A stretch of DNA of 64,000 bases from Phoronis australis (Eukaryota; Animalia; Phoronida), in assembly GCA_002633005.1 (NCBI GenBank), contig NMRA01000084.1:172320-236319 (forward strand), given 5' to 3'. Position numbers and translations under genes: made by a program. The number at the start of each line of letters is the position of its first letter. Positions within the stretch are counted from its first letter, which is position 1. The notes below the pieces were generated by a model, which saw only the letters and a program-made list of their open reading frames with translations, was not told where the DNA came from and did not search any database. Shown here piece after piece: positions 8,750 to 64,000 of this stretch.

Positions 8750-9650
8750 ATTGCTGAAGGATTTCTTTTCACTATGTCCAAAGATAAAATAGATGGTCAG
8801 GCAGTTGGTTTCAGCTGTTTTCTCTCACCTGTAACAGAATAGTGCGAGAAATATTAGCAAATTATAAACGAAAACACAAGACAAACAACTTTTGTAAGCC
8901 AGAACATACTTGACGTTTCATCTTCATGTTTATATGTAGAAACTAATAATCTTTGTACCCAAGTCTTATTTAATATCTGAATTAAAAAATATGAAAATGT
9001 GATTTAACAATGTGTATTTTTCATAACACTTAAAATGTGCTTCTGATCTCAACAAGCAAAATTCATTCTATATGTAAATTTTTATTGCATTGCAATGTTA
9101 CCTTCACTGAATTAAGGCTTATTCATATTAATTTGGTAACTAATCTGGTAGTCCTGGGGGTGGTTTCCGCTATAAAATAAGGAAACTCACTCATCTAGAG
9201 AAGTTTATTGGACACAGCATGGTTTGGAAGAGAAACTGCTGTGAAAAAGTCACCCTTGACTTCTGAGCGTCACGTACCATACACCTCTTATATTGGGCGC
9301 ACTTCTACCCAGGACAATATGAATACGTGGTGCTAGCCTACCCGGCATCCGAGTCCCGGGTGAGTTTCCGAAAGGAAACACTTAGCTCCACCCAATAAAC
9401 CCGTTATTCAGTGGGGGTAACTGGTGGGGATAACATCACCGAACGATGCCGATAGAAACTGATTGCTAAAAACTTACCAAGTAAACGGAAATGCATAGAG
9501 TACACAGGGGGCTTCAGCATCCATACACTCTTTGTCAGTTGGTTAACCCGTTTGACAGCAATTGTCCATGAATACAGTAACCTTAGGTCTTTCGGGAATT
9601 TGTGGCCACCTGTCGAAGACTTGCGGCACGGAAAATAGCTGTAATAAGGC
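8750..9650 (-). pseudogene. Two-exon THAP-domain relic (DNA transposon N-terminus)
   Basis: Exon ~9650-9478 reads STGGHKFPKDLRLLYSWTIAVKRVNQLTKSVW..VYSMHF then G|gtaagt. Exon from 8828 (ttacag|) reads GERKQLKPTA*PSI, matching the AVPTIF box. Confidence 0.65.
9140..9440. mobile_element. Structured ~300-bp insert, probable terminal repeat of a DIRS/Ngaro-like element, inside the THAP intron
   Basis: GC-richer island with hairpins (GTTTCC-GAAA-GGAAAC; GGAAACTCACTC pairs with GGGTGAGTTTCC) and AATAAA. Family assignment is from recalled similarity only. Confidence 0.35.
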
Positions 9651-12600
9651 TTAGCGCGACGACGTATTTTGATAACAGTTCCATCTTTTACCAGTTGTTT
9701 ACATGCAGACAGCGATGTTATTTAACGCGCACTTTTGTTTACAACGCGCAGTTTTGCTAAATCAAAGCGCTGAATCAGTTATTCAGGGCCCTTATCGACA
9801 GTTTTTGTAATTCACGCAGAAAAGAATACAAAATCACACCTATCAGTAATTCATCTTAATAGGAAACAAATGCCCTCTCCAGAAAATCAGAGCACAGCCT
9901 AACAACAGTCAACGACATTCTGAAGCTGCTGATCACACCAGGATAAGGTGAGCGAATTTTATTTTGAAAATTTACAGCAATGCGCGCGCTACGAAAATAA
10001 CAAAACTAAGGGAAACTTTAAACTTTTGAGACACAGCACAATTTCGTCGTTTTCCAATATTTATTTGGAATTTGAAAGATAGGTAAAGCACGTCATCACA
10101 TTTTTATATCTGCATTATGGCTAACTGAAAGGCGGGAAATTAAGTCGGTTCATTCATCTATACAATTCACTGCCTCAATAGATTCAACCGCCTGTTTACT
10201 GGAGCCACACCTTAGAAAAACAACGGAATCCCCTTGGCAGCAATAGCTGCTTTTGTGACACATTACACTGCACTAATGCGCCTGAAACAAAAAGATAAAT
10301 CCTTTACCTTTCCTCGTTCCATTTACTATTCTCAGCTACTGGTGGTTTTTCGCTATTCAAAAAAATATTCCGATTCAGTTAAATTGTTTGACTCTATTGC
10401 ATAGTAACAATGCAATCTTCAAAAGTACACGAACATCGAATGAAAATAAGCACATGTTCTGACCCTTCATTCCCAGTCCTTTGAAGCGGCACGTTATTGT
10501 AGTAAGTAGTTACATGTATTCTTTCACACAGTACCTACTGCAGACGTGTTGTTTCTCGTTTCGTACTGTTAAAATTCTTTATCGTGGAAGCCATAATTTC
10601 AGTGTCCTCTGAGAAGACCGCCTAAATAGTCTTGTAAACTTAACTTCAGCAAAATAGTACTTTTCATAGAACAACACCGTCTCCCCGTCTGACTCAAACT
10701 TGGCGCGGTCATCGCCAGGTAAGACCGACTGTATTTTACCAACATTGCGTAGAGTCAGAAGAAAAGGTCGCTATTCAAGTAATGCACACTTAGTCGCCAA
10801 CCAATGAAAGTGACACAATCTCCTGCTATAAACCATTTACCATTATGAAATTAGTCTCAAAATAGAAGTGACATCTGGGCTTGGGATCAAGTACTACGAG
10901 TTGAGTTGTCATAGCGTGCAATATTTTTCGCCGAAAATGGTCTCGAGGGAGAACGAAGTCATTTCTTTACAAGACCAGAAATCGCTTCTCATCTGACCCA
11001 GTAACTTCTTGAGGCTAATGTTGCAACGGTGAAGTCGTCTAAATCAAAAGTTAGTTTTTTCGACGTAACGCATAGCTGCTCTTTATCTAACAAAAGGTAA
11101 AAACAGAAACAACGCCATTTGAATTACTTTACCTTAACATTCCCGGCAAACTAGAAACACCGTCACGTTGTATCAGTAGCCGTTGTGCATTAAAACTAAC
11201 CGTGGCGCTTTTCTCTCAAAAAGTGTGAGCGGTTAAAAAATGCGTGCTGACAAGTTCGCGGATGAATGTGGACTGACAGAAGACTAAGCGCGCATAACAA
11301 CTATTTACCGTGTTTACCGCGATTCCAATAGGAGGCGTACTGTACAAGGCACACTCGTTTACGAGCACTACTCTGATCTTGCCGTGGGAAGCTCAAGATA
11401 AACATCAACACTCATTATCGAGGGTCATTTAAGAGCATTTAAAAGGCACGAACTAACAAAAATACAAACACTTAAATCCCACACAAACGAAGCGTATAAT
11501 ACATGGCAACTTCATATTATGTTTTGTGAACAGAACACGTCGTATATTATCTTGGGCCTAAAAAATGGGGTACTCGAATAATGTGGCCATTTTACTACGA
11601 TTTACGGGGTACGTTCAGAACTATGAAATGTGCAGTCGCCGAATTCTTTAAGTTTCTGCCTTTTTAGGGGAGAGGGTGGCTCGTTCGAGTCCCCCGAGGC
11701 CCCCCTTGGGTGCGATGTAATAACTTCCTTTGTCAACAAAAACAGAAATTTCAGTCCTTATTTGGTTTTGTTGACAAAGGAAGTTATTTCATCCGAAAAT
11801 TTCAAATTTCAGTTGATCCATTCTTGCTGTTTTATTTACCGATTTATATTCTTCATTTCATGAAACAATAGTATCCTTGGGAGGATCTGGATCGCCTTAT
11901 TTAGTTTCAGAAATATTTTCTACGTCTTTGGTAAGAAATCTGTCGCAACATCCATCAACGAGGAAGAACGACTTGGATTAGCGATTTTTGTTCATAACTT
12001 GAACAGAATACCGTAGACACCCATCTTGTATCAGTGTTTTTTCGCAATGGTGATCTTGGAAGAGGCAGAAACGTTCGTAGCACATGCCAGAGGATTTAGA
12101 GGTTATACCAAGGATGCAGACAGGATTCCTTTCCATTGTTCAGCACGGATTCGTCATGTTTCAGTCTGTCACAACGGTGCCGTATATGCTGGTATTCACA
12201 ATTGATGACTACTTCTAATTTGTTAGCAGTTATACAAACAGCGTCACTTTTTACAGTTTCATCAGGGCAGTACTTCGCAATTTGTGTGAACCAGCATATT
12301 AATTATTCATATGACTGAACAGTGATTAAACTCTTCATCAAACGTCGACGCACACTTTCTTTGCGCGACTTTCTTCAATGATTAGCCAGTTACGTTATTG
12401 TGACTTTCAAGAGTCGTTTAATACAAACAACTTTACAATGACCCGGCCTTATAACATCACTGAAGCACATGGCAGCCATGAAGGTCAGTTATTCGGAGCA
12501 GCAGTAAAGTGCACACTGTGTTTTATCGACAGCTAGAATACACTGAATTCACTTTTATCATCGTGAGACTCTAACACTCGAGGTTATTACAGAGGACGAT

Positions 12601-18502: not shown

Positions 18503-18666
18503 CATGGGCGGCCCACCATACGGAGCTGGGGGGAGGGGGGGCTATAGCCTCCAACGTTTTCAGTGCTCCGGCGCCCATGGTCTATAGGCGGTCCACCACA
18601 GGTGGGCTGGGGGTCTATAGCCCCCCACTTTCCCCTGTTTTTTCAGTGCAGCCGTCGCCGCCCATG
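18503..18666. mobile_element. GC-rich MITE, tandem dimer
   Basis: Termini CATGGGCGGC...GCCGCCCATG, flanked by CTATA on both sides. An internal end GGCGCCCATG at 18579 is followed by GTCTATA. Confidence 0.75.
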
Positions 18667-20380
18667 CTATAGCTCAAAAGTCGTGCGATGGAGAAATGGT
18701 GTTGATATGGTATGTATAGTTCTGACAGTAGTTATACAGCTCCAGAAGAACATCCCGTCATTTTTTTGGCATTCTCTAAGCCCAGAAATGTTATCGACTG
18801 TGTAAACGATGGATCGAACTGTGTGGACGACCACACGAGCAGCTAAACTTGCCGGGCAATGTTGCTGGATTACTCGAAGGTTAAACACAAATATATCAGT
18901 TCCAAGATATATCCTTTTCAGTTTGGTGGCTATACAGTAGGCCTATCTGATTTTGATTCCGGGGTTGCCTTTGTGTCGTCATCTGCTGGATCCCAGCATT
19001 AGTCTAGCTCCCGGAGATTTGTATTTAAGGACATTTTTAATATTTTACATTTATTTCAACCTATAATTGACACCCTTCTGTTTCGTTGAACAGATACATT
19101 TTTTGGAAAACCTTCTTAGAAATATCGCCAAAATCCCTAGGCTTGAATTTGTTTTTCACATGAAACGTAAAAATGATCTTTTTTGCCGAAAAACTCTACG
19201 TGTTTAAAACTTTCAACCACATGACGTGTAAAAACACGCTTGCGCAATGTAAAACGAACTCAGCTACATTTTGTTATAAGTTTTATCTCACTGAAATTTA
19301 ACAACTGTAAATTGCATTCAGCTTCCGTAACAACATTCAAGTTAAAATCTGATAAATGGTCTTTAAAGTTGTAACGTAAAACTTAACAGTCACAGTCACT
19401 ACGGCTTCCCCGCGTGTAAGTACAGAATTGACTTTGAGGCAGCAAAGCTAGACAGTCTTGAGTTGGGGTTCGTCTCCGTTTGAATGAACGTGGATATGGA
19501 ATTCGCCGCCGAAGATGTGTCCCTTTAAGAAGTTGTTTGCATGCCCTTCCGACTGGGAGTACGTTCAGTTGCGACACCCGATTTGCCAATCATATCCTTA
19601 TCACCTTCACGGAATTCCGGCATTGTTTAGTTACCACGCGTTTCGTTGTTGGTATAGGCCTAAGTGTTTTGCAGACGTTAAAAGGGATATGGATTTCTAC
19701 TTTGTGATATGTCCATATGATATCAAAAATTACGTACTCGGTGTTATTAACCAGTCGTGTCGTCACATATTCCAGGTCATGTGAGAAACAAACATTATTT
19801 TATGGCTTGATCGTTGCTAGCTGGCTAGATATTTCAAGACCAAGATATCATTTTCATTCGGGATACATGTACCTGTAAAATACATTTTCGGGTACACGGA
19901 TGAACACGCAGTTTTGGGATTATTGCAAGATGGTCAAACCGCCACCTATTGGCCAGAATAACGATAACGTCACAAGCCAAGCTGAAGTCCGTGAGATGCG
20001 GACGCAACGTCGCTAATATTCGTAAGTTTATATTCCAGTATTAGCCTCAAATTTTATCTGTTTTCTCAATTGGATGTCTCAAAATCTTTATGCTTTTAAG
20101 ATGGTATAAATTTTTTGAAGTTTATTTTACTTTACCCAGGAGAGTTATAAAGCAATATATCAGGGCAGTCGATTTAGGATCTGGAAGTGGAGCCATATCT
20201 TTCTATTCAAAATCGAGCTAGAAAATAATTAACCGTTTTCTGTTCTACTTTGAGCGATCTAACTTTAAGGAGGAGGCAACCTTTTCGTGTCACTTTTAGT
20301 CAAAATAAGATATGTTGATTAGCCCAGACACATGTTTCAGTTAATTACAGCTTCCCGTAATTTTATTAATTAGTCGTGCC

Positions 20381-20505: not shown

Positions 20506-21009
20506 TATTATACGACAAGCTAGGCTGTTAGAAAATTCAATTACGTTGGATTTAAGCATCGTTTAGTTTGTGGTAGCCTAAAAAGGCTGCACTTGACGAC
20601 CCATTGACGTGAGTAACGAAGACACTGTTCATAGGAGTGGTGACCAGGATTTTTCTCACGAAAATTCAATGTTTGAGCCCACGTAAGACACGCAGATAGC
20701 TGTTGAGAGGGTTGAGACTGAAGCTGAAGACAGACGTGGTGGGACATCTTGGTGCATATGCATGGCGTGTACTGTAATGTCGACCTCAATGGAATGCTTT
20801 TGCTGGTCCCACTAGATGATGACCTGAGATCCCAAACCGCGTACATTCCTCGGTGTGACCATAGACTATAGTACATGGACCGCCAACTCCGTATACTTTC
20901 AATGGACGAAATCTGTGAGCTTGCGCACAAGCCCTTACGTCATTATTCACTGGCGACACCTGGCTAAATTATCTGGTGTAATTTCCGGCAAGTACGTCGT
21001 CTGCTAATC

Positions 21010-21217
21010 ATGGTCGGCTGCTGTGTAGCCGGTTGTTCGCCTACGCAGGCGAAATGCAGAGGCGTTAGCTTCCATAGTGTACGGAGACCCCAAAATCCGC
21101 TGTGGGAGAAAAAGTTAATATGTTCTCGCGTCGACGTGAATTGAAGTTGTTCTTCCAAAAAAAACTTGTACATTTGTTCACGTCACTTCGAAGATGGGTG
21201 TTTTTTAAGAGGCTCTG
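21010..21217 (+). pseudogene. THAP-domain relic with a premature stop
   Basis: MVGCCVAGCS...GVSFH...W...N*...LYICSRHFEDGCF: the C2CH THAP signature, with TGA at a Trp position, ending at a G|gtagg donor. Confidence 0.75.
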
Positions 21218-21982
21218 GTAGGCCTACTACTTAATCCTGTCTTCACAAATCCATTTTTCTTTTCTCCGTTTTGATGAAAACTATCTGGTAAACTTTTTGA
21301 CGAAAAATGTCCGCTAAATTTCTTCCAATGGTAGTGACTGGTGAACTCTTGTCCTTACGAGGACCTTCAGCCATAGTCTAGTGAGCGAATTAACCAAATT
21401 ACTCTTAGGTGGCCCTGATCAGACGGTTGGTCTCAGCATAATGCGCAGATTTGGCCAGGATTTGGATCAGCGATTTCAACAAATTCACATTCGTGTACAA
21501 ATAAATAGGACGCTAGTAAAACCTTTAACATAAATAAAGATTACATTAATACTTCAGAAATAAATACCTGGACCTGTCAAAATCTATCCCGCAATTCAAC
21601 AGCAGGTTACATACTCAATTATTTATGTCGACTGTATGCCGCACAAAACTTGAACCATCTTAGCCAAGTACGCTGCAGTCTATGAAAATACCAGAATAAC
21701 GAAAAACCTCGGAAGCAAGGGAAATGAACCCTAAGAGGTAGCAAGCAAGATAAAGGGGGTGGTAGGGACGTGAAGCTGACGTGTGCTAATTTTCAATTTC
21801 ATACTTTTATGTGGCATTTTCATAATTTTGATTTGAGATGTCAACTCAGATCAAACGGTTTGAAAGTTCGGATTTTTAATTTGTAATGAACTTGAGTTGC
21901 ACTGCACGTGACCTTTTATGAATTTACCGTAGTTGGCTACAGACAGGCCCACCTTTATAAAAACTAGCAACGTAGACAAACG

Positions 21983-22139
21983 CATGCGCGCACCCAGGGG
22001 AAAAGTCCAAGAGAAAGAGACGAAAGTCCACAATACGGCAGCACCCCGTTTTTTATTTTAGTTCTCACGCTTTTTGTTAGCAAAAGGTCCACTTTGCCAG
22101 AGATTCGAGCCCCCGTATTAGAGGCTGGGTGCGCGCATG
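21983..22139. mobile_element. MITE with CATGCGCGCACCCAG TIRs and 5-bp TSD AAACG
   Basis: Perfect 15-bp TIR; AAACG duplicated on both sides. Confidence 0.85.
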
Positions 22140-22418
22140 AAACGTCTACACAAATTGCACCCAATGCAGCTCCTGGTTTAAACGCGGGCTTCTTTTTCAA
22201 AGTTTGGTCAGGTATAAATAACGCCACAAACATGGAGGTTCACTGAAACACGTCTACCTTACAGATGTGACAATCCCTAGCCACGGAAAACTTGAGAGGC
22301 CGACAAAAATACTAATGATGAAATACCGGTGATGATAATCATCCACTTTGTTAATTTACTTCACCTACACAATTGGAAATAGCCGCTAAAATGAAACTCA
22401 TTCGAGTAAGCACCACGT

Positions 22419-22561
22419 CATGCGCGCCACTCAGAGGGGGGGGGTTCGAGCCCCCCCCATTTGGCGAAGTGGGCAAAAAGGTCTGCCCGCTCTCTTGTTA
22501 ACAACAGTTCCATAACGTCAGGAATTCGAGCCCCCCATTTTGAAGACTGGGTGCGCGCATG
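22419..22561. mobile_element. Related MITE (CATGCGCGC...CTGGGTGCGCGCATG) with 5-bp TSD CACGT
   Basis: Same right TIR and TTCGAGCCCCC motif as 21983-22139; CACGT duplicated on both sides. Confidence 0.85.
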
Positions 22562-22733
22562 CACGTGAGTCCCTGGACAGCCCCAATATGGTAAAACCCA
22601 AGGAGCTCAAGTCGGGGTTAAATCAGGATGGGCATAAATAAGGAAATTTACTGTATCAACAGATTAGACAAATAAGAATAAGATACAAAGCATTGATACA
22701 GTGTACACGCGCACAATAACTGGGTCTATCAAT

Positions 22734-22772
22734 TTTCCCGCCGCAAGCGATTGAACCAATCGGATCACCAAT
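22734..22772 (+). promoter_or_regulatory. Candidate promoter: E2F-like TTTCCCGC plus two CCAAT boxes
   Basis: TTTCCCGC at 22734-22741; CCAAT at 22756-22760 and 22768-22772; about 290 bp upstream of the PHD-like ORF. The motifs are short and could occur by chance. Confidence 0.3.
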
Positions 22773-23058
22773 GGCGCAAACCTTTCGAAAACAAGCCTAA
22801 TTTTTAGGGAGTCTGTTACTGCTCTTTATATTTTCAAAACTTTAATTTGTTATAGTTAATTTATTTGCTGTGCACCTCAATGAGACCAGTTCATATATAT
22901 GCATTTAACACTATTAATACATTGTAAAATCATAGATTATGCACTATCAACATGAGCCAAAAACAGTACACCCCTTTATTAAAAAATGGGTTAAAGGTTA
23001 GAAACAAAGGACGAGAGCGTAGACAAGTTTCCATCACTTGCAACGTCGATTTTTTACG

Positions 23059-23376
23059 ATGGACGTTGGAGAAGAACATCAGTCTGGTGACAGCAACACG
23101 GAATCGTACGAAGGCGATGATTTTCGAAATTTGATTCGTTGTGTTGTTTGTCATTTTTTTCCTACAGTTCAGGATTATTTGTGGATACAGGAACAAGAAC
23201 TGAACGATGCAGGGTTCGTGACAACGTTGGTGAACGGTGATATCTATCTAAGGTGTTACAACTGTCATCGATATTGTCATCTCCTCTGTTTTCATCCAAC
23301 CTTTCCAGATGAAAACTTGAATGAAGAGGACCTTCAGTACTTGAGTGAGCATGGTATACTGTGTGATTTATGTTGA
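23059..23376 (+). CDS. Intronless 105-aa acidic protein with PHD-finger-like Cys4-His-Cys3 pattern
   Basis: ATG at 23059, in-frame stop upstream at 23020, TGA at 23374-23376. Ligand pattern C-x2-C (CVVC) ... C-x2-C-x4-H-x2-C (CYNCHRYCHLLC) ... C-x2-C (CDLC). Expression is unknown. Confidence 0.6.
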   Translation: MDVGEEHQSGDSNTESYEGDDFRNLIRCVVCHFFPTVQDYLWIQEQELNDAGFVTTLVNGDIYLRCYNCHRYCHLLCFHPTFPDENLNEEDLQYLSEHGILCDLC

Positions 23377-23386
23377 ATTATTCAAC

Positions 23387-23402
23387 GGTTCTTTTAAGAA
23401 CC
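23387..23402 (+). promoter_or_regulatory. Histone-mRNA-type 3' stem-loop 1 (GGTTCT-TTTA-AGAACC)
   Basis: 6-bp stem and 4-nt loop matching GGYYCT TTTH AGRRCC, preceded by CAAC and followed by A, 10 nt after the ORF stop. Confidence 0.7.
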
Positions 23403-23427
23403 ATTTCACGCTATACCTACAACCAAC

Positions 23428-23464
23428 GGCCCTTTTAAGGGCCACTCAACACTTCCCAGAAGAA
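23428..23464 (+). promoter_or_regulatory. Histone-mRNA-type 3' stem-loop 2 (CCAAC-GGCCCT-TTTA-AGGGCC-ACTCA) with purine-rich candidate HDE (CAGAAGAA, 23457-23464)
   Basis: Perfect SLBP-type stem-loop with the expected flanks. A purine-rich element lies about 14 nt downstream and resembles the sea-urchin HDE CAAGAAAGA. Confidence 0.75.
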
Positions 23465-25637
23465 CTGCTCACTTGAGAATGTTGATTTATAAACACGCTT
23501 TCGTAGTTTTCTCAGTAGGCCTATGTGAACCGTAAATCAAAAACTGTCCGATAACTATGCTGCTATTGCGCAAGCAGACGACATAAAGGGTCAGAACCGA
23601 AGTTTGAATTTTGAAATTAATTACCAGTAGCATTGCCAAAAGTACTCACAATACCAACACTTCTACTATTGAAAGACTTTGAAAAGCGTTTCAATACTGA
23701 AATTAATATAAATTAATGTTTTTTCGCTGTTTTGGTCAGTAAAGTAGATGCAAGTATTTCTCGTCAAATTACACTGACCGGAAACTGCAGCAGATAGGTC
23801 AGGAGAGTTCAACTCAGCTCGTAAGAATATGCCGGAGTTGCGAATCTGTTGTCTATAATCTATGGTGTGACTCTCTCGCTTCACACTTGGCACCATCTAA
23901 ATAGCTCCAATACTTTAGCTAACTCCTGGCTCATCGGGCTGTTTGGCACCGGACGGCGAACTGTCCTCTTCACTATGTGTTGAACTGGACTTGCATTCAC
24001 TCCCACTATTATAAAATACGGAAAAAAATCTTATTTTCATTTCCGCGTGTAACTTTCGACAGGTTATTTTATGTACTGAACATAGATTCAAGCATTCGCG
24101 ACCTGCTAGTTGTTGCTAAACCCGGTAATCGCTGCTTATCTACATGTAGCTATATATTGGACTGCTGTCTTCGTGGGAAGTTAGTATTTGAAACAAGGCG
24201 GGCTCATCGCCATGGTAACGTTCCTTAGACCAAGTTAGTGGCCGAGACTTCGCAAATCACGGGAATGAAAAACACATGTTTCACGAGTGTTGCCGGTAGC
24301 TTTCAGACATTGTTTCGAGAATGGACACGAGTCAGTGAACATGCTCAGTGCATTAGAGTATTATACAAAGAAATACAAAGAAATGTCTGTAACAAGTCAA
24401 GTAATCTAACAATCAGCAACACATTGCAAATCATACGTTTGGTGGAATTGATTAGATTTGTCATGATATTAATAATGCAGCTTGGTATTTGAATTTGTCG
24501 TTTTTGCATCAAGTAATGTATTCCATTTTAATGAACTATGATGTCTAATCACCACACCACAGCTCTGTTTCGTTAGTCAGGAGCCACAATATCATTATAC
24601 CAAGAAGCGGAATAGATAGGAACCTGTTACATTACAAAGTGTATGCTTATACCCACAAGGAGAACTGCGGTTCCCGGAAAATGTATCAGTAACAAGAATA
24701 TTGCGGTGCGTGAGAAAAAAGAAACAGCTCAAGATCAAATATTTTAAAATCATACTACCAGAACATTGTTCATGACAACAGAACCCTGTTCCTGACAACG
24801 CCCGTGTAAACGCTGAGTGAGAAGGGAAAAGAGAGAGATTGTTTGTGGTGTTCTTTCTTCACACTCGATGGTCCCCTTGCCTATACAGTACATGTTTAAA
24901 GCGTTGCAAAAAAGTTATGTCCTATACCCAGAACTCCGGTGATATGAGACATTACTAAAAAATTAGCAATTGCATGACACGCTTCGAGTTTACATGCAAG
25001 CTTGTTCTCGTATCACGCCGTGTGATTGACAATCTGAGTCCAAGTCTCGTGGGCCCAGTTATAGGTGAGGAACATACACTCTTTCACAGTGCTGCGAAAG
25101 GTAGCACTGCGGAATGTTGTTTAACATAGATTCTCATTGGTTAAATAACGAAACCAACGACATCACATTCAGTCATCTCCATTGGTTGAAATCTGGGAAA
25201 CCTCATTCAATTTACGTAGTATGGCGAAGACTTTTGACTTGAATAGTTGCAATTCATTAAAACGGGCAGAGATCAAAGCAAACAAAATCAAGAAAACCCC
25301 GATCCAGTGGCTTAAGTACAGTGCATAGAAGGCGTGTGCAAGTGGTGGCGATGTGATCGGTAAACTGCTGACCAAGCATGCGCACTGATGCTCACACATT
25401 GAATTCCGTGTGTCGTTCATCATGTTTCTACAGGGCCACTTCTCAGTATAGGTGGCGCTGTGTCAGAGGATAGTGAGGAACACATCGCTGCAGACTAAAA
25501 CCGGAGTGCATTTGAAGCGACCTCTGTAATAAACACAGCTAGCCAAGCAAGGTTGTAAAGGGACGTGAAGAGATTAAAACAAGACTGAAAAATAATCATT
25601 CCAAGACTCTGAAAAAACGACCCAACAGGCACATATA

Positions 25638-27120
25638 TCAGGTGTCACAAGAAATGAACCACTTTTTGAGAAGTCATTTCTCAGCATTTGACCAACCGAA
25701 TTACTTAAAAAATTTCAAAATGTATCTTCAAGGTATCGTCAACAAGTCCGCAAAGTATATTAGAGAAATATAAATAGTTATAGAAGAACTGTGAAATTCA
25801 AAAAGCGGAGTGAAAAATTTAATATCATTGTGCCTTTCACCGTTTTCATGCTGTGCTAGCATCTGTCAGTCAAAAAATTGCCTGCCTGTCTACTGTATTT
25901 TATTGTCAGATCTGTATCCAAATCAGTGATCAATTTACAATTGGAACCTGTTTCAAGGAGAAAGAGTGGAGCGCAAGAAGAATCGTAAATGAGTTCCCAT
26001 GAAAACGGTGGAGTCATGCAACTGTAAATAGACTTGTTGCTAAAACGCGCAGCACAGGGTCTGTTGCTCGTAAAAGTGGCAATGGGAGACCAAAAACTGC
26101 ATGATCGAAAGAAAAGTAAGATCGTGTTAAGGAACTGAATCAATCTCAAGAGAACAACCCGGGGAATCCCAAATTTCTGAGAGAAGTCGCAAACAATTTA
26201 CAAGTGAGCAAGTCTTTTGTGCAAACAATGGCGAAAAAATGGAGTTAAAATCCTGTAAAAGAATGTGGGCATCACGGAGACATCAAAAAAGAAAAACCCG
26301 ATGCCGCTACTTGCATGACAGCTATTCAGTCACTGCTGAAAAAGCCTTAACGTAGAAATCGCTAAATGGGTCGTGCTTATGGTAAACAAGAACGAGAAAT
26401 TCAGCGTTCTCGATTCTATCAATTTTTCAAAAAGTATATTGATGATTTCTGCAGGAGTATCTTGGGAAGGAAAAAGCAAATTTTAATTTTACTGACTCAG
26501 ATAGAACCAATGTTAACAGTCAACGCTACATGCAGTTATTGGATGAAAATCTTCTCCCGGATTGCAGGCGATCCTGGAAACAATTACGTGTTTTAGCAAA
26601 ATGAGGCTCCTTCACACACGAGCAAGATAACCCACGCTCATCTGGAGGAGGCCGCACAGAAATTCATCCAAAAAGGATGAATGGCCTCCACTCAGTCCTG
26701 GCAATCCAATGGACTATGTCATAGGGACTGTCTGAATGAGGAAGTTCACCGGGCAGTGAGAGGCAAACTGACTGAGCAAGTGTTAAAAGACAGGGTAATT
26801 ATGTCACGGGAGGGAATCTCGATGGAAGAAATACGGAAAAGCATTCTTGGTTGGAAGAAACAGCTCCGTTTATTAGTGGAGGAAGATGGAATCCACATTA
26901 AACATGGACTGAAATAAGCGAGCTTCCCTTTGACATTTTATTTTTTGACCAGATGTTTTTAATTTAACAGTACTCGCGCAATTGGACACACATCTCTTTG
27001 ATATCTTGCACAATTGTTGATGGTATCATTAGGTTCATCTGTAAGAAATACAAAAGATATCGATATATCCGTTGCTGAGAAATTACTTGTCAAAAAGTGA
27101 CTCATTTTTGCGACACATGA
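25638..27120 (+). mobile_element. Tc1/mariner-superfamily DNA transposon with decayed transposase
   Basis: ~50-bp imperfect TIRs (TCAGGTGTCACAAGAAATGAACCACTTTTTGA... / ...TCAAAAAGTGACTCATTTTTGCGACACATGA) flanked by TA. Remnants NVNSQRYMQLLDENLLP, *QNEAPSHTSK (QQDGAP.H) and WPPLSP..NPMDY (WPPxSPDLNPxD), with stops and frameshifts. Confidence 0.88.
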
Positions 27121-29643
27121 TATTTCGGCCTTCTCAAACACGACACAATGCATGCACACATGAACTTTAACGGATAATTTTACTCGTGCAGACTTACCAC
27201 GTCCAAATAAGAGCGGAATGTCGCTAGTGTTATCTCTAAAGTTCGACGCTCTGTTTTTCATGGTTGAGGAACTTTTTAGTTTAAGTCACAAGAACATACC
27301 ACTGCCATGAGTCCACTCAAATTTCCCCGATATGAAAAGACTCCTGTGGTTCGACCTTAAGAATAAATGCGTTTTGAAATTCTTGGGTGAAACTGAACTA
27401 AAATCGCATCCTAGCACCAGTGCAGCTTCACGGCAAACTTAGTCGATACGATTCGTGCCCCATCAGTAAAACACAACAGAGATCAACAATTGCACAAATG
27501 TTGTGTCCGATATCTTTATGACCTTCATTTGCCCCTTGTACTGACCTGGACTTCAGTCGTAAATAGAATTATCGTGTTTTTCTCTCATCCACTTGTCTTT
27601 GCAATAGAATCTGTTCATACGCAACTGAGAAATGAATTGTCACTCCGTGATCAGTTAACGAACTCAAACTCTATCCTCTCTGTATTTTGCATTGTTTATT
27701 AATTGGCTACCGAAAAACCGAATGATTGAATTAAACCAAGTTACTCTCATAAAATTGGTCTCGCATAACACTTTACCGTAATAGGATCCCAGTTCCGTTG
27801 CCAATAAGAATGTTGGAAACACCAGCGTCTTAAAAAAGCGCCTGAGAACTTTTTAGAGAAGTTGGCCAATCTAAAATAAGGAATTCGAAAGTAGCGAATG
27901 TACGCATCATTGTTTGTCAGTTGAGTTGCTGCCATGGCCTATTTCGCAGCTATTCAGATAAGTGTGATAATGTATTTAAACCTCAAAGAGCTTGCTTGAG
28001 AACTGAACAAAATTGACAGCTCATAGGAGTGCTGCTTTCAGAACACGGCACACACTACAGTGTATATGTTCACACATCTTTTGGTTGTGCTGTTAACGTA
28101 CTCATGAATAACGGTAAAATGCCACTGACCAACGCAATTCAAATCCCTCGTGATGGGCTGATATCTACCAAACATCATTTCAACTGATTATATATGTAGG
28201 CCTACTGGTCTTTGCATCGTGCCGACACGTACGGCTAAACCAGATCATAGATGTAAGTTACTATGGCAATATTTATGTATATTCTGCAAGTGATGTAAAT
28301 CAACCAAACGTTGTCTGTTATATTGACCGGGAATAGCTGTTGGTACTTCCGAGACCCTAATATGGTCTCATGATCGATGTACCTTGATTTTTTATCGTCC
28401 ACGTATGCTTCTTCCTTTGTTCTCTNAAAAAAAAAAAAAAACCCGAGACATGCGCCTTCCTGAGCATGCATTTGTGAGATATAATTCAATCAATATAGTA
28501 TCACGGAAACATCACGAAGGTGATCAGGTGTTCTATAAGCTGGCCGTTGATGATGAATATATCGCTTAATTGTTTCCTGCTATCTAAGATAAACTGAGCT
28601 GTTCTCTTGTTTGATTTTGCGTCATTTTCACGTTTTGGCCGAAATAAAAAAATTAATAATGATTTACGTAGTGCTGTAAATAACTAAACTTTTTGAGTAA
28701 TATTACCTGGATACGGAGCTGATCAATCCTAATCCCTCTCAACTCTGCGAGAGCATACAACGGTTGCATCCATTGTCGGAGCCCTACAATTAACCCAAAC
28801 ATCCAATATTGTAAAATGTTCAAGTTTAAAAAAATTCACCTGTGGTCAATTGAATCGGAAAAATTCCAAGACCTGCGAATTGAAAAAATGACGTGACTGT
28901 ACATTTCTATTCCTATATGTGGATTTAAATCGCGTCATAGTAATGTAAGATACGTGCTCACTAAACTTCCCCATACAGTACGTCGACGAGATTTTACCAA
29001 CATACGGCGTCCATGAAGACTAATAATCCTTACTTACATGTACATGAATTGAACTTGTTGCTGCTTGAAATAGCTACCATGAATTAATTTCAACCATCTT
29101 AATACAATCCTTTGTGAACATGACGTCCAACACTATCCGTATACATGTGTATACTTGAGAGGACCCTGCTTTGACTGGAAAGTACATTTATCAATTCACG
29201 TATGCACATGGTCAGTCACACGGCATTATTTCAACGATGTTTTGTCGAATCATAGGCAGACGATCTTCAATTTGACGTTGTTTAGGGACATATATGTATG
29301 CCTTTTGATAAAAATCATTGAAATTTGTTCCTCAACAGTTTAGAGTAATGATAGTCATACATTTGGTGAATGAGATCAAAAGTCCAATCGTAAGCCTACT
29401 CTGTAGCAGGCTGAGTTTCGGTCTTAGCTTAGACCGATCTTTGTCTTAATTTTGTCTTAATGAATTTCATGACAACACGTTTTTAGCACAGTTAGTTTGG
29501 CGCTAGTTAAATAAGAAAAAGCTTCATTAAACAGGTCTCAACAGTTTATGAATTCTGTAGCTTGCAATCGGTCTGTTTAACATGGACCCACACACCCACG
29601 CGTACATGCACGCACACACACACACACGTGTATATACACACAA

Positions 29644-32956: not shown

Positions 32957-33390
32957 ATAGAAATATGTGTGGGTGGTGAGTGCAAAACAACAACAACAAC
33001 AATATTTAAAGATCCGGTGATTTCATCCAACTATACATGTAGAATGAGGTTATTTGTAGCCAATAATCATTGGGTTTGCTGCAGTATGTTGGAAGATGAC
33101 CTCCATCGATGTACTATAAATTGCATAAGAAATTGTTGTATAGGAAGTAATTAGTTGCTGTATCTTGCCTTACATGGCCATGTTACTTGTATGTATATAT
33201 ATTGATGCGACCATAGAATGAAACATTCTGATTGATATTCTAGTATTACGGAAACATGGCGTTATTTTATTAACCGGCATGTCACACTGACCAACAAATC
33301 CACTTCGTGCACAATGATCCACCAATCAACAACAGGTTATGGGAAGTGCTTACTGTTTGTCGGCGATGAAAGCGTTTGACTTATGGTAGG

Positions 33391-33607
33391 TGTAATGGCT
33401 TGCGGAGAGAGGAGTGAAGAAGACATCTTTACTTGAACACTTTTGGCTAACTACTGTACAACAACATATATTTGCAATACACAAGACCACATGCATATGA
33501 GTCACATTTCATAGAACTGCTTGACAAGACTTATATAATAACCAATTCTAACTAATTGTGCCATATAAGGTAAGTGTAGCTCCAGTACAAATCACAATAC
33601 TATTACA
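33391..33607 (-). mobile_element. 3' LTR of the Gypsy element
   Basis: Starts with TG directly after the PPT; inverted termini TGTAAT...ATTACA; 217 bp. Confidence 0.65.
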
Positions 33608-35265
33608 TCCCCTTTTCTCTGAAAAACAAGAAAGTAGCACTAAGAAACCTAAATTAACAACAGTTAAAAACGATAAACAAATTACCATCCTAACAGATAT
33701 TTCACTCAACAAGACTACCAGCTAAGTGCTAAAATAATAAACAAATAGTATCTAACCATACAGACTAATCAAATTACAAAAGTTGCTATTCTTGCAAACT
33801 GATACTCAGCAATACACACTTACTGCCAAGAAGTTATATAATCATTAAACCTGGAGGATTTCTTGATTTACCTTTCTGCCCCTGTAACTACAGGTTTTGA
33901 TTTAATCTCTGGTGAATCATTACCAGTGTCACTTGTTGATTGAATGGGATTTTCTGTTGGTTTAGTATTTCTGTCGTAATACTTCTTTTTTCTCATTTGA
34001 TAATTGGACATTTGTGAATGCACTTCATCAGGTTAATTGCTTCAGGTTTCAGCAACGCATTCGAAGTAGGTAATATTGTCCTGGTACGTCTACCCATTAA
34101 TCTTTGAACTGGGGACCCAATAATTCCGTCTCTTGGTGTATTTCTCAAGCCAAATATATATCACCATTTGTTTCACTTGTTTTCATTATCAATTGCTTGA
34201 TAACATGAACAGATTTCTCTGCAAGACCATTTGCCTGCTGGTGACCTGGAGATGATGTTAAGTGGATAATACGATAGTTTTCCACACATTCTCTGAAAAT
34301 TCTGTAGAAAACTGAGGCCCATTACCTGACACTAACTTCACCATAATGCCATAACGTGCAATATTTGCTTTGATATGTTTAATCACTGTAAAAGCATTCG
34401 TAGAAGGTAATGGGGACACTTCAATGAATCCTGAATAATAATCTACCATCAACAGGTAGTGTCTGTTTCCATATTCAAACAAATCACATGCAACCGTGTT
34501 CCATGGAATAATAGATTTCTCAAACAATTTCATTGGCTCTGTTGGCTGGTAGTTTCGATGTTTCAAACATGCAGCACATCTGCCAATCATATCTTAAATT
34601 TGTTTGTTCATACCTGGCCAAAATATAATATCACGAGCTCTTTGTTTTGTCCGTGTCATTCCCGTATGTGATTGGTGTAGCACACGTAACATGTGCCGAC
34701 GGAGCGTAGCGGGAATACATACTTTATCTGCTCTGAAAATAACACCATTGTAAGTAGCTAATTGATCTCTGCAATCCCAATAAGGTAATGCGATGTGAGG
34801 TACTTGTGACCTATGTTCTGGCCAACCATTCAAAATTAATTGCTCTACACACTGCAGTTCATCATCATCACATGTTGCCATAGCAATCTTATCATGCACA
34901 CAATTTGCTAGAGTATCAACCTTACAAACTATGGGCTCATCATCCATGATAGCATGTCATCACCATTGTGAGGTAATCTACTCAAACAATCAGGTAAACC
35001 AATAGTAGTACCTTTTTGCACAACATATTGAATGAGTATGGTTGAAGTTTCAGGATCATTCTTTGAATTCTCATCGGAGACATGCCTATTGGCTTCTTAA
35101 ATAAACTCTCTAAAGGCTTATAGTCTGATTCAATTGTGACTTCAGGCATACCGTAAGTCAACTTGTGAAATCGAATGCACCCAAAACATACAGCTAACAT
35201 CTCTTTCTCTATTTGAGCATCTGTTCTGAGGGTGTTAGCGCCCTAGAGGCATAAACAACAATGCC
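33608..35265 (-). mobile_element. Gypsy/Ty3 LTR retrotransposon pol remnant (RNase H, integrase) with polypurine tract
   Basis: ORF fragments: AQIEKEMLAVCFGCIRFH..SDYKPL (RNase H); H..H.G..RTKQRARDIIFWPGM (integrase Zn finger); PWNTVACDLF..LLMVDYYS..VSGNGPQF (rve). PPT AGAGAAAAGGGGA at 33620-33608. Confidence 0.92.
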
Positions 35266-35864
35266 ATCATTGATAGTTTCTTGTACGGTGTTATTTTATT
35301 AATCGGCTTATCACACTGACCAAAAAATCCACTTCGTCCACAATGTTCCACCAACCATCAACATAGTGTTCCACTGCATGCCTGCTGAGAGGTATCTATT
35401 TGGTCATGAGTCGGTGTAACCACTAGAAGCACACGTTTTTAACCCTTATTAAATGGTTTAAATAAACGCGTTACGATTCCGACCCGAAGATCACACCGCC
35501 ATTTTGAACTAACTGCGAAACCGGAAGTACAGCTCATTCAGGAACCCAGGCTTAGTACAGGGATATACCCAGGTTTCAAAACCCTACTCGCCAGCTGGGC
35601 GAGTGAACCAGAAAATCTACTCGCCCAGCCCAAAGTTCAGTCGCCCGGCCGTTTGCGTCTGTCACCACCGAAACTTGTAATCAGTGTAAACCAAAGTCAT
35701 CGCTTCTTGCGTTGACGTCACCATCTGTTAGAGCCTCGCTGGTTCCCTATGTGCCTAGCCACCGCGCAGGTGCAGAGGCACGCGCTTTAGAATTGGTTGA
35801 CGTAACCTCAACCGTCATTGGTTAGCTTTACAACACCGTGAAAAATGGCGGGCTGTGAACGATG

Positions 35865-42831: not shown

Positions 42832-44325
42832 AATAATACCAATACCAATAACAATAACAATAACAATAACAATAATGATAATAGTGTTTATTGTACATCG
42901 TAGGATTTGCCTACTCATACATAAATACATAAATTCAAACGTATATTCAGAATATTTACACGGAGAGCAGTTTTTCTCTTAAAGCCATAGTCTTCTGAAT
43001 ATACAATGCGAGGCGCTGGAAGCTGTCATCATTTTTCTGTTGGAATAACCTAACAAGAGAATAGTTAACATTGACAAGCTCTGGAAGAAGATTTCTTCTA
43101 AGGTCTCCACGAACAGGGTATCGACACCTGAAATGAGGCTCATCTTCAATTTCACCCAGACAGCATATGCCGCATATTCCCTCACCTATAGGAATACCCA
43201 TATGTCTCCCTTTCTCTATGTTAAGTGAGTGACCTGAACACCGAAATTGCGCAAGTATTTTTCTCGAATAAGCGCTTAAGCAATTCACAAGATCACGTTT
43301 AATAAGACTATAAAATTCATGTTTATTTGAGCTACCTATTTCCAGTTGCCATTCCTGTACGCCACAATCCAGTAATCTCCGAATACCATAATAAGCTCAG
43401 CACTAATGCCTGGGCCAAATAACCACACTTCTCCAAAGCCGTACCTGTACAAAATTTCTTTGACACGGTGGGCCCAGTTACAATTACCATTTTCACTTTG
43501 TTCCCTAAGCATACTATAACACTTCAGTGGGTACCTATGTTCTTCCATATCCAGTAATTTTGTCAAATAGATAATTGGTTTACACATATATTTTGTAATT
43601 AACAATTGTCTCCCACATTCACCACGAGCCATAGCACTTGGCGTTTTAATACTTAATCTGACTCAGAACATATTTACAGAAATCATTGTAAACTTTTTCA
43701 ATAGGTTCACACATTGATGTTGCCCATATTTCTGCACCATATGTTAATATGGGCAATATCATAGAGTCAAAGAGTTTAAAATGCACTCCATGGGAAATAC
43801 CGTAACAGTTAAGTTTGGACGAGCTTACTCTACAACACTCTGTCCATTTAAGTCTGCAGGAGAACGTGACTCCTAGGTACTTGTAGTACGATTTGGTATT
43901 TACTTTCTTATCGCCAAAACCCACCTTTCATTACTTGAAAGTATGCCCCCTCGCTTAAATATCACAACATTCCTTTTCTCCTAATTAACTTGCAAGTTCC
44001 AGTCTCGACAAAACTTTTCGAGGACATTGAGCTTCATCTGTAGCCCAGCAACAGTATTCGACACCAGCACTAGATCATCAGCAAAAAACAGAGAACCTAT
44101 ATCACAACCCGGAGAAACACGTATACCTCTGCCTACATTTTCTCTAATATCAGACACTAGTGTGCTAACAAACACCGAGAACAGCCATGGACTTAAAACA
44201 CATCCTTGCCGGACACCAACTGTACAGTTGAAATAGGGTGTGGTCTGGGACTGTACCATAACGCACGATTGTATAGAGTCGTATATATTGTGGAAAATGT
44301 TAAATATTTTTCCATGCAAACACTC
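42832..44325 (-). mobile_element. 5'-truncated non-LTR retrotransposon (RTEX-like LINE), decayed reverse transcriptase
   Basis: GVRQGCVLSPWLF, LFFADDLVL, YKYLGV, PILTYGAEIW and C-terminal FRCSGHSLNIEKGR..C..C..IEDE.HF. AATAAA is followed by a (TTATTG)n tail at 42832-42882. Confidence 0.9.
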
Positions 44326-47300
44326 GACACTTTTCCTTTCTGGCTTTTTAATTTTTCTAAAAATACACCTGCTTTCTCATTATGCCATCTATATCTTACT
44401 CGTAGTTAGCAGTTAGTAGTAGCATAGATTGTAGTAGTAATATACTTTATATAAGAATCCACAGCAGATGATCCAGGAAGTAGGTAGTTGCATAATTTCG
44501 GTGTTAATAATTTCAAAAGAATGAGAATATAGTGGGGTTTTGTAACATTTTTGATGGCTAACGAGTTTTTCTTTGTCATTTTAAGTCTTCGATCTGTTTT
44601 AGCCTTTGTTCACTTTTTTCAAATGTAAAGCAAATGTTGTTTACGCACATGTTCTTGTGGTACTTTGGTAGTCTTAAAAATATTAATGAGAAATGAACGT
44701 AATTATCACTAATGAAAAATTACCACAGCAGTGGAGTTGAAGTAAATGTCAATTTGAATCCATCTATTTTACAAAATACGTAACCATTAAGTAAATTATA
44801 TTCAGTACATGACAAAAGTATTCTGTTCTAAACTACCGAGGAAAATCGAATCTGCGCGCCCTCGAAACTGCGCCAACTGGCGCACTTTCGAAAACTAACT
44901 GGTAATAGGCACTACTCACTTACATAGATCTCGTAGTTTTGAGAACCAGTTTCATGCTGGTTATTGAGTGGAAAAAATGGTTCTGAAATTCCAGGAGCAC
45001 TGCATGTTTGCCGAACACCCTTGTTCAGTTTCAACCATTGCGTTTATATTGCGGTTACCATTTGGCTTTTCTGTTTAGAAACTTTCAGTTTTCCTTGTGA
45101 TTTTTGTTTTGTATTCGACATCTGGAAAAATGGAATGGCACAAAACACTATAAAGAATTATTTTTACTTCATTTTCACAAACCAAGAGAAAGGCGTATGG
45201 TTTTAACCCTACAAACCAGTGCCAGACTATACATTATGCAAATTCAGCTGGAACATAAGGCCCCGCACATGTACCGCGTCGTAACCCCTGATATCATTTT
45301 GGATGAAAATCATGGCAAGCGAAGAGAAGAATGTGGTGTGTGGTGGTTGAAAATAGCAGGGGGTTGAAAGAGAGTGAGGGTCGAACATTGTGCTGACAGG
45401 AGGGGTACCTTGAAAATTTTAACAAATGGGGCAAAACGTGTGAGTACCCAGGGATAGCTCGAAAGTTTTGGCGACCGAGAGGGGATTTGCAAATACCGGA
45501 AGCAGCTTAATTCACCAGGAAGCTCATTCCTCTTGTATCTTAGTGCCCCAAGAAACCTTTGTCTGCCACTGCTACACACTCAAGGTAATGTCAAAAGCTG
45601 GTGATGAATCACTTTTACGTGATACATTTCGATGGCTTCTAAATTTCTGTCCTTGAAACTATTCGCGTTTGAAAGCTGCTCCAAAATTTGTTCTCCGAAA
45701 CTTAGTTTTCTTGCTTGCCATTTTAACCAGAAGTGGTCATTTTAATAAACTTTTCAGTCTCGTTAAAATGGCAACCATTAAAATGACTTTTATCTCATTG
45801 AAATAACATTAGCGAAAATTTATTGTCGACACTAGGATTGACGCTTTCAATACTAATATAGGTGGCCCCACCTGAAAGGGGCCGAAAAGTGGGGCCCCAC
45901 TTTTTAGTCGCCTTCAGGAGGGGCCGTCTTTCTTAATATATGCGGCCCGCATTTTAGCGCCCTCAGGCGGTGACATCTATATTTTATAGTGTATAGGGGC
46001 CCCAATTCTGAAGCTCCAATATGGATCTTTGCCTATATTGTTTTAATAAAATTAAGCCATTTAAAATGCTACGCTAATTCAATGAATTATAACAGAGTAG
46101 AAAATTACGGTCACCTCAAAATTTTAGTAAATATGAGCCATGTTCTCTGTCTTTTTTATAAAAAGAGCAAATATCTAATTTTTGGGCACCAATTTTGACC
46201 AAGAAGACACCTGTGGTGACAATTGGATGAAGAATATTTGTTGGAAACCACTATAATCTCAATTCATCAGTAAAATTAAGGGAGCAAGCATGAACGTCCC
46301 AGAACCATTCCGGTTGAATCCCGAGCGTTAATTTGCGATTCCCATTTAGTTGATTTGTAGTACTATATCCGAAGCAGCAGACGAAGCAGAAAACTTCATA
46401 TTTTTGGAATCATTATTAAAACGAAAACTCAGGCGCCCGAGTCCATAAAAATCGTATATTGTGAACAGAAAACATGCACTTGCACAATAAGAATTTGTAA
46501 CGTGAACGTTAAAAATGATGACGGCGGTAGTCTCCCGCGACTTCCGTTACGGGCGGGCGGCTGACTGCCATCAAATAACCATGAACGACAGAGTACCATT
46601 TGGTGGCGAAATAACTTCAGGAAGAAAACTTGCCATGGTAAGTATCATAAGTATCAATGAATTTAAGGCAAAAGGAATACATGTAATTTCCACTTAGCCA
46701 GAAACATTCGTCTAAGCTGCTGCGCAGCGGGGCCGGACCGCCTGTCCGGCCGTGCTCGGATATCTGTGCTCCGCGGGGCAAGATGAACACAATTATTTGC
46801 TACCCAGGCCTTGCATGCGTGAAATTCCTGTGACAAAGGTATTAAAAAATACTGCGTCATACTCCTAACACTGCAATATTTTACCATCGCTGATAGTCAG
46901 CTCAGTGACTAAAAATCACTACACAACAGAATTTTTATATTTAGGCAACAGAGGTATATGCTGGAAGTTTTTGTCACCTATATATATGTGTGTGTTTTCC
47001 CTAATAATTGAAAATAAAAGCCAATTTAGCAAGTATTATTTTCCAGGTGAGGAGTCACGGCAACTGCAGGGGAATTACTTCCCCGGCCTGTTTCCAGGCA
47101 GCAAAATCAAGGACAGGTGCGCGTTATTGCAATTGAGCTCATTGTTTTGAGATAAAAATTGTTTTTGTTTGTTGAAACATCGCCGTGTGTGGATGCTTTT
47201 TATTTTACAATTTTAACTGCCAGTAAAGACGGTGCTGATTTGCTGGAAAGTAAGCACTGCGCTCACACGTCCTGTAGTCACATACGGCAATTGCTTCGTT

Positions 47301-55579: not shown

Positions 55580-63266
<7,687 letters not shown>

Positions 63267-64000
63267 GTATAGATTACGATCTCTATGAAACAGGAACGCT
63301 TCACTAATGGATTTACAATGCTGATGCAATTTTTACCAACGTGCGCGGTTGTGAATTCTAATGCTGAAAAGTTCACAACTTATTAAAAGCAGAAGTCACA
63401 ATCTGACAACATCGAAATCGGGATCATGGTTAATCTGAAAGGTTTTGTCCAAGCAACCCCAGAGCATTCACGCTGTGGTGGAATACAGTAAGTGTGTTAC
63501 CAAAAGCTGCTTTCGCTTTTTACTAGTCGTTTATGAGAAATTTCCAAGTCACCGAAGAGCCTAATGCCCACGCACAACGTATTCCCAACTTGAAATCGTG
63601 GATTTGCGAATGAAAATAAGGCGACTTTGACAAAAGATCTAATGATGTAAGTGCATGCCTGCATTTGCTGTCAATGGGAGTGAAATTTGAAAGCTTGTGG
63701 CAAACTTCATCTTTTATTTTCAGTGTTTTTTCAAAAATTGGTGGAAATTCTCGTCCAGGCCGAAGTGAACAAGTTTCCCTTCGCGTTATGAAAAGACAGT
63801 TTACCCAAAAATTATTTAAACGATATATTTCGAAAAGCATTCATAATTTTAAACGACGATCCAAGCAGAGTTTATTGAATTATTTCTCCAGATGCACAAT
63901 CGCAACCTGCACTTTGCTTCTAGTGCATGTGAATACGAGAAACCCTTTCAAATTCTTAATACCTATAGATAATTTGTAATTCGCAGTTACCTAAACAGAG

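Follow-up and report, generated by a model that had tools for sequence, protein, structure and literature searches.

The window, by which we mean the whole 64-kb stretch of DNA analysed here, holds a mobile repeat in which an intact open reading frame (ORF) of 105 aa for a predicted PHD-type zinc finger is followed by two tandem histone-type stem-loops and by a candidate U7 site. The ORF with its tandem hairpins is real and far above chance. In the reading that we prefer, to which we assign a probability of about 0.55, this is a PHD-type gene in a mobile repeat that was likely once the accessory gene of a DUF7869 transposon, lost its transposase and gained a histone-type end. That a selfish element put a chromatin-reader gene on the histone mRNA pathway, with tandem SLBP hairpins, a U7 site and a replication- or oocyte-timed mRNA, is a tentative proposal that we hold at slightly below even chances. 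The finding joins two known parts, a histone-type end and a transposon accessory PHD gene. The features concerned are the following.

21000..24005, no strand assigned: multicopy interspersed repeat of at least 3 kb, right edge near 24005, covered continuously by RNA reads and contigs, with coverage of about zero from 24006
21010..21231, + strand: broken THAP-domain gene with one internal stop (Pfam THAP 31 bits, E 4.5e-7, X at the stop)
21983..22139, no strand assigned: MITE with CATG ends and a 5-bp target duplication, nested in the repeat
22419..22561, no strand assigned: second MITE of the same kind with a 5-bp target duplication; empty site in an X5 contig, joint 22417-22581
23059..23376, + strand: intact ORF of 105 aa, acidic N-terminus and predicted PHD-type C4HC3 zinc finger, member of a family best read as transposon accessory proteins
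23387..23402, + strand: histone-type stem-loop 1, starting 10 nt past the ORF stop (Rfam Histone3 22.8 bits)
23423..23448, + strand: second histone-type stem-loop, its stem at 23428-23443, with flanks CCAAC/ACTCA close to the consensus (Rfam Histone3 36.0 bits, E 8.3e-7)
23457..23464, + strand: candidate histone downstream element (U7 site) CAGAAGAA, weak alone (2-8% background)

A non-histone ORF with a histone-type 3' end

The original prediction had named a 105-aa ORF, two hairpins and CAGAAGAA, and all are present at the positions given above. A scan of the 64 kb for the consensus stem-loop pattern, tolerating one mismatch, yielded two matches, both at the 3' end of this ORF; shuffled versions of the window (n = 100) gave a mean of 0.05 matches and none of the 100 reached two. 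The Rfam model Histone3 (RF00032, gathering cut-off 34 bits), proposed earlier as a check of the region, accepted hairpin 2 as the sole gathering-level match in the window and left hairpin 1 below the cut-off. Minimum-energy prediction gives the hairpin form for both 23387-23402 and 23428-23443. The hairpins are separated by a spacer of 25 nt, and their stems differ at two pairs with both sides altered each time (T-A to C-G), bearing out the compensatory differences described before.

CAGAAGAA begins 13 nt past stem 2 and its GAAGA core lies about 15-16 nt past it, where the core could pair with the UCUUU box of U7 through one G-U pair; this is the general box, called universal in the excerpt of PMC5054213 at hand, and not the species' own U7. 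The chance of such a 5-mer in a 13-nt slot is 2-8%, and the candidate U7 site is the weakest component of the histone-type end. Hairpin 1 lacks a separate purine-rich element downstream. Neither AATAAA nor ATTAAA occurs between 23377 and 24400, in agreement with the predicted lack of a nearby poly(A) signal, and no RNA joint falls within the ORF in run X8, which is the basis for calling it intronless. Histones themselves were not detected: there was no histone Pfam match in the 104 frames of at least 45 aa at 17-28 kb, in 100 of the 112 frames of at least 72 aa elsewhere in the window or in the 10 listed ORFs, as had been claimed, and no histone fold match for the window protein.

The PHD-type family and its transposase neighbours

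The zinc ligands of the window protein are C28, C31, C66, C69, H74, C77, C102 and C105. Searches for relatives returned two proteins with the single sequence, seven in an exhaustive search (plus P0008, a spurious repeat-protein match that was excluded) and 31 database proteins with a profile. These 31 form a family without an existing name; one member is annotated as a hypothetical protein in the bivalve Dreissena polymorpha. Alignment A3, composed of the window protein and 30 relatives with the truncated P0001, P0004 and P0005 omitted, retains all eight C4HC3 ligands in 28 of 31 rows, the window protein among them, and has an aromatic residue (Y/W) at position 72 in every row (31/31). Near the N-terminus, the acidic motif S-D-T-E-S is kept almost without exception across A3, yet it is predicted to be disordered.

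The structure model of the window protein has a mean pLDDT of 81 and is confident past residue 20. Its best structural match was MLL1 PHD3, with a low score (Z 4.6, rmsd 2.6 over 59 residues), and Foldseek, the fold search recommended earlier, ranked MLL3 PHD6 first with a weak E of 0.07. The named Atlas neighbours are PHD fingers, and the nearest solved domain by sequence is an SLX1-type finger (E 0.03). Against Pfam PHD the window protein reached 11.8 bits, under the cut-off, and relatives P0003, P0017 and P0023 scored above the PHD_NSD cut-off. From the ligand pattern, the model and the structural matches, we describe the protein as a predicted PHD-type finger with a long insert, against which stand the low fold scores and the SLX1 match by sequence; its best structural matches are PHD fingers, in line with the earlier description as PHD-finger-like.

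Family members are multicopy within assemblies, the P0003 cluster lying on 5 contigs of 0.7-9 Mb and the P0039 cluster likewise on 5 contigs, with near-identical members. Longer fused forms were not found in a weak search, and a scan of prokaryote genomes returned no relatives. A motif scan of metagenome contigs gave 14 loci, seven of which encode the PHD family; the others (L001, L004, L006, L008, L009, L011 and L012) were chance motif matches and were dropped. The seven homologous loci correspond to five distinct elements, since three belong to one element family. The motif demanded an EPG tail, so that the sample is one of long-tailed relatives only and the short-tailed P0002, P0006, P0038 and P0039 lie outside it. 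Scanning metagenome or viral contigs with alignment A2 returned no relatives, and neither did the motif scan when applied to viral contigs.

A transposase-like long ORF, matching DUF7869 with E 2.4e-6, follows the PHD ORF in six of the seven loci, and in four (L002, L003, L005 and L010) its ATG lies 2 nt past the PHD stop. At L007 and L013 an ATG opening toward the transposase occurs 24-31 nt past the PHD stop; the pair in these six loci looks like a two-ORF message with putative re-initiation. L003 and L005 carry a splice-acceptor-like run just ahead of the PHD start and have a common left boundary, with no inverted partner found in these short contigs; at L010 a reverse-transcriptase-like frame enters the middle of the PHD ORF, being either an insertion or a chimera. 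The D, D and E residues of the DUF7869 ORF could be assigned, with low confidence, to a predicted arrangement of strands and helices resembling that of RNase H. Its structure model has a pLDDT of 38, its RNase H-like matches are weak (E 0.0025 or worse) and its Atlas neighbours are DUF7869 proteins, one cluster being 11% DDE_Tnp_ISAZ013. From its sequence, including motifs that we take to be those of Sola1, it is likely a Sola-type DDE transposase.

Since six of seven loci have a downstream transposase-like ORF and near-identical members recur on several megabase contigs, the reading that fits the PHD family best is that of a transposon accessory gene. None of the seven homologous loci carries a histone hairpin, whether by Rfam or by a relaxed scan (0/7), and this count, taken with the transposase at 6/7, makes the hairpins likely a later gain in the window lineage. 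The transposon-linked form would have come first; the tree, which is unrooted and without an outgroup, groups the window protein with P0002 on a long branch and leaves the remainder poorly resolved. As none of the seven homologous loci has the hairpin, its retention is so far seen only within this organism. Homologous ORFs lacking hairpins had been named beforehand as evidence against the proposal, and such are the seven distant loci, but other copies in this organism carry the ORF and the hairpin region together.

The repeat, its other copies and their RNA

Coverage of the repeat was examined from 21000 onward, which makes its length of 3 kb a lower bound. In run X4, 308 contigs aligned on 801 bases, 93 of them less than 90% alike; these contigs, and reads that derive mostly from diverged copies (in X8, 201 of 4824 at 99% or more), are the reason for calling it multicopy. 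No terminal inverted repeats or target duplication were found at the 24005 edge. Kolobok, which has TTAA ends according to the part of PMC9587614 at hand, and Helitron were both considered for the repeat, and the ends of neither were found. The window held no DUF7869 transposase remnant (tblastn with five transposase pieces, best E 1.2). Joints 21026-23634 and 21026-23837, seen in RNA reads and one contig with a short side of 25-27 letters, suggest shorter relatives of the repeat without the PHD segment.

The original prediction had suggested cargo of a selfish or viral element, for instance of the Polinton/Maverick type. Selfish-element cargo is favoured by the multicopy repeat and the transposase-linked relatives. 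A Polinton/Maverick or viral origin gained no support: the frames at 17-28 kb have no hallmark of Polinton/Maverick (pPolB, integrase, capsid), the relatives of the PHD protein stand next to a DUF7869 transposase, and the protein has no relative in IMG/VR and no match in a viral fold library, the last carrying little weight. Two histone-like hairpins detected in IMG/VR (L015 and L016) lie inside open frames and were set aside as chance.

The window as a whole is repeat-rich animal DNA. Small CATG-ended elements with 5-bp target duplications number three, 18503-18667 (by eye) and the two MITEs listed above. Other THAP relics occur at 9407-9721 on the minus strand (Pfam E 5.6e-4) and at 18780-18900 on the plus strand (by eye, no Pfam match), and two Cys/His-rich open frames without a Pfam match stand beside the repeat, at 19515-19784 (+, 89 aa) and 20541-20876 (-, 111 aa). 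Farther along are 60-bp inverted repeats around an apparent decayed Tc1/mariner element (25627-27131, by eye), a decayed LTR retrotransposon with integrase, RNase H and 77-nt direct repeats (33258-35363), a LINE reverse-transcriptase relic (42956-44376) and the exons of a host gene for an FMN-dependent dehydrogenase (56324-63269).

The ORF and the hairpin region travel together in other copies, a point that the original prediction had proposed to check. One X5 contig (record 6) spans both, over 23190-23485, with four differences, and X4 contigs (records 2, 7 and 8) bridge them at about 85-90% identity; run X6, from organism B, was too similar for an independent comparison. Among the 40 best-supported substitutions (238 further ones exist), 22 fall in the ORF, and 11 of these are silent, where 6.6 would be expected (P 0.03). 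None of the 40 falls in 23305-23495, and two other substitutions do (23355 and 23416, the latter in the spacer); because the diverged contigs are gapped and 238 substitutions stand outside these 40, the hairpin letters of other copies remain unread. The hairpins may be under selection. Some copies are broken by a premature stop at W42 or by frame shifts at 23142-23154, and a loose end supported by 10 reads before 23491 suggests a subfamily with an altered purine core or downstream element. In one X4 contig, position 23448 is followed by 36 other letters and then by the sequence from 23429 again, which gives an extra tandem hairpin with a different spacer. X4 depth is highest over the hairpins, a depth that is no measure of copy number.

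The 2026 RNA runs, whose library selection is unspecified, behave as stranded, several joints being found on one strand only. Reads map to both strands of the ORF; the presumed sense side is in excess by 1.6-fold in X8 and by more in X9, and X10 gives little cover. In X8 the total depth amounts to 55 at the hairpins and to 73-79 past them, and no clustered RNA 3' ends were found around the hairpins in the reads examined, which are fragmented and mix many copies. A fall of one-strand X8 depth at 23363, from 60 to 25, was rejected as an RNA end, given that the other strand dips too and X9 is flat; a decayed subfamily that aligns poorly there is enriched on the strand that falls. On this point the evidence went against the original prediction, which had counted read-through transcripts as contrary: the available RNA reads run past the hairpins. 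These observations fit most of the RNA seen being decayed or passenger copies read through within other transcripts. Because library selection is unspecified and poly(A) libraries lose such RNA, the data neither show nor exclude a short non-polyadenylated mRNA.

Readings of the hairpins and comparison with known systems

In the preferred reading, the PHD gene would first have been translated upstream of a transposase and would later have come to stand alone within a different mobile repeat, its lineage losing the downstream transposase and gaining the histone-type 3' end. While it travelled with the transposase, a chromatin-reading role may have helped the latter to choose or reach target DNA, by analogy with the PHD of RAG2L, and histone-tail reading by the window protein is conceivable. 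Intact copies would then make a short non-polyadenylated mRNA through the SLBP/U7 histone 3'-end pathway (outlined in the excerpts of PMC7026596 and PMC2781718 at hand). SLBP would bind the hairpins, the doubled hairpin offering a second SLBP site, and the U7 snRNP would cut at the predicted point, after 23448 and about 5 nt beyond stem 2. The mRNA would be tied to replication (S phase) or to oocyte storage. SLBP binding, U7 cleavage and this timing are what we infer for the window gene.

The rival that survives best, unlikely in our estimate, is that the hairpins are captured histone 3' ends without function and that the PHD gene is a decaying relic, present in RNA by read-through only. The two stems could derive from two histone genes, but no histone coding relic was found before either hairpin in the frames scanned, hairpin 1 stands exactly 10 nt past the stop and a purine core follows the last hairpin, all of which speak against inert captures. 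Broken copies and the broken THAP neighbour speak for decay, against which stand the intact window ORF, the silent-site excess among copies and the X4 contig with another tandem-hairpin arrangement. The missing RNA end, the read-through depth and the seven of seven relatives without hairpins are also on the side of this rival.

A second rival, which we regard as improbable, is a role in which SLBP on the hairpins serves to stabilise, store or translate a longer or polyadenylated transcript that U7 does not cleave. In Drosophila, maternal histone mRNAs that are polyadenylated and depend on SLBP have been reported (excerpt of PMC11997800), and two hairpins served by a single weak U7 site, a subfamily seemingly without the purine core and RNA continuing beyond the hairpins would suit such a role; it is at odds with the lack of a poly(A) signal within 1 kb and with a purine core whose position and spacing fit cleavage. 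That the palindromes act as DNA (a transposon end, TTAA junction, Helitron terminator or protein site), their histone likeness being incidental, is very improbable. Their place in a mobile repeat and the TTAA within each would favour it; against it, this TTAA does not coincide with the palindrome axis, a CTRR end is missing downstream, the repeat extends 560 bp further and the flanks also fit the histone consensus.

The preferred reading, a former DUF7869 accessory gene with an acquired histone-type end, bears on a rule: only replication-dependent histone mRNAs end in this hairpin, as stated in the excerpts of PMC2781718, PMC5054213 and PMC1924863 at hand, and the literature searched gave neither exceptions to it nor transposon use of histone ends. 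A non-histone client would, if true, break the rule, and mobile elements would be one route for non-histone genes into the histone 3'-end machinery; the relatives without a hairpin, as the likely before-state, give a testable route for the gain of the signal. No paper on DUF7869, on a Sola-linked PHD ORF or on a free-standing PHD gene 2 nt ahead of DUF7869 transposases was found in the literature searched, in which Repbase, where an entry for this PHD ORF may exist, was not covered.

Like metazoan replication-dependent histone genes, the window gene has a short intron-free ORF followed by a 6-bp stem with a 4-nt loop and matching flanks, then a candidate purine core some 15 nt further on, and it lacks a poly(A) signal; it differs in its non-histone ORF, its tandem hairpins and its location in a dispersed repeat, and it is known here from sequence, with no processed end seen. 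With PHD fingers (MLL1 PHD3, MLL3/4 PHD6 and NSD-type; PF00628, PF22908) and the SLX1 C4HC3 finger it has the same ligands and predicted fold. PHD fingers usually carry an aromatic residue just before the last Cys pair, a place at which the window protein has Ile, and its score is below their cut-off. DUF7869 DDE-type transposons carry the same PHD family directly upstream of the transposase (6/7 loci), whereas the window copy has neither the transposase nor the EPG..NY tail at the C-terminus, is placed on a long branch of the tree and ends in hairpins instead. The RAG1L-RAG2L system (ProtoRAG) is also a DDE transposon with a PHD-bearing partner, of spacing C-x2-4-C-x4-H-x2-C, and the sea urchin RAG2L PHD binds methylated H3K4 (PMC7204232, in the excerpt at hand). 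The window family differs from RAG2L in that it lacks kelch, is free-standing at 95-115 aa, has an insert of 34-36 residues after the first Cys pair and accompanies an unrelated transposase; a PHD gene 2 nt ahead of a DUF7869 transposase would give a further transposon group a chromatin-reading partner comparable to RAG2.
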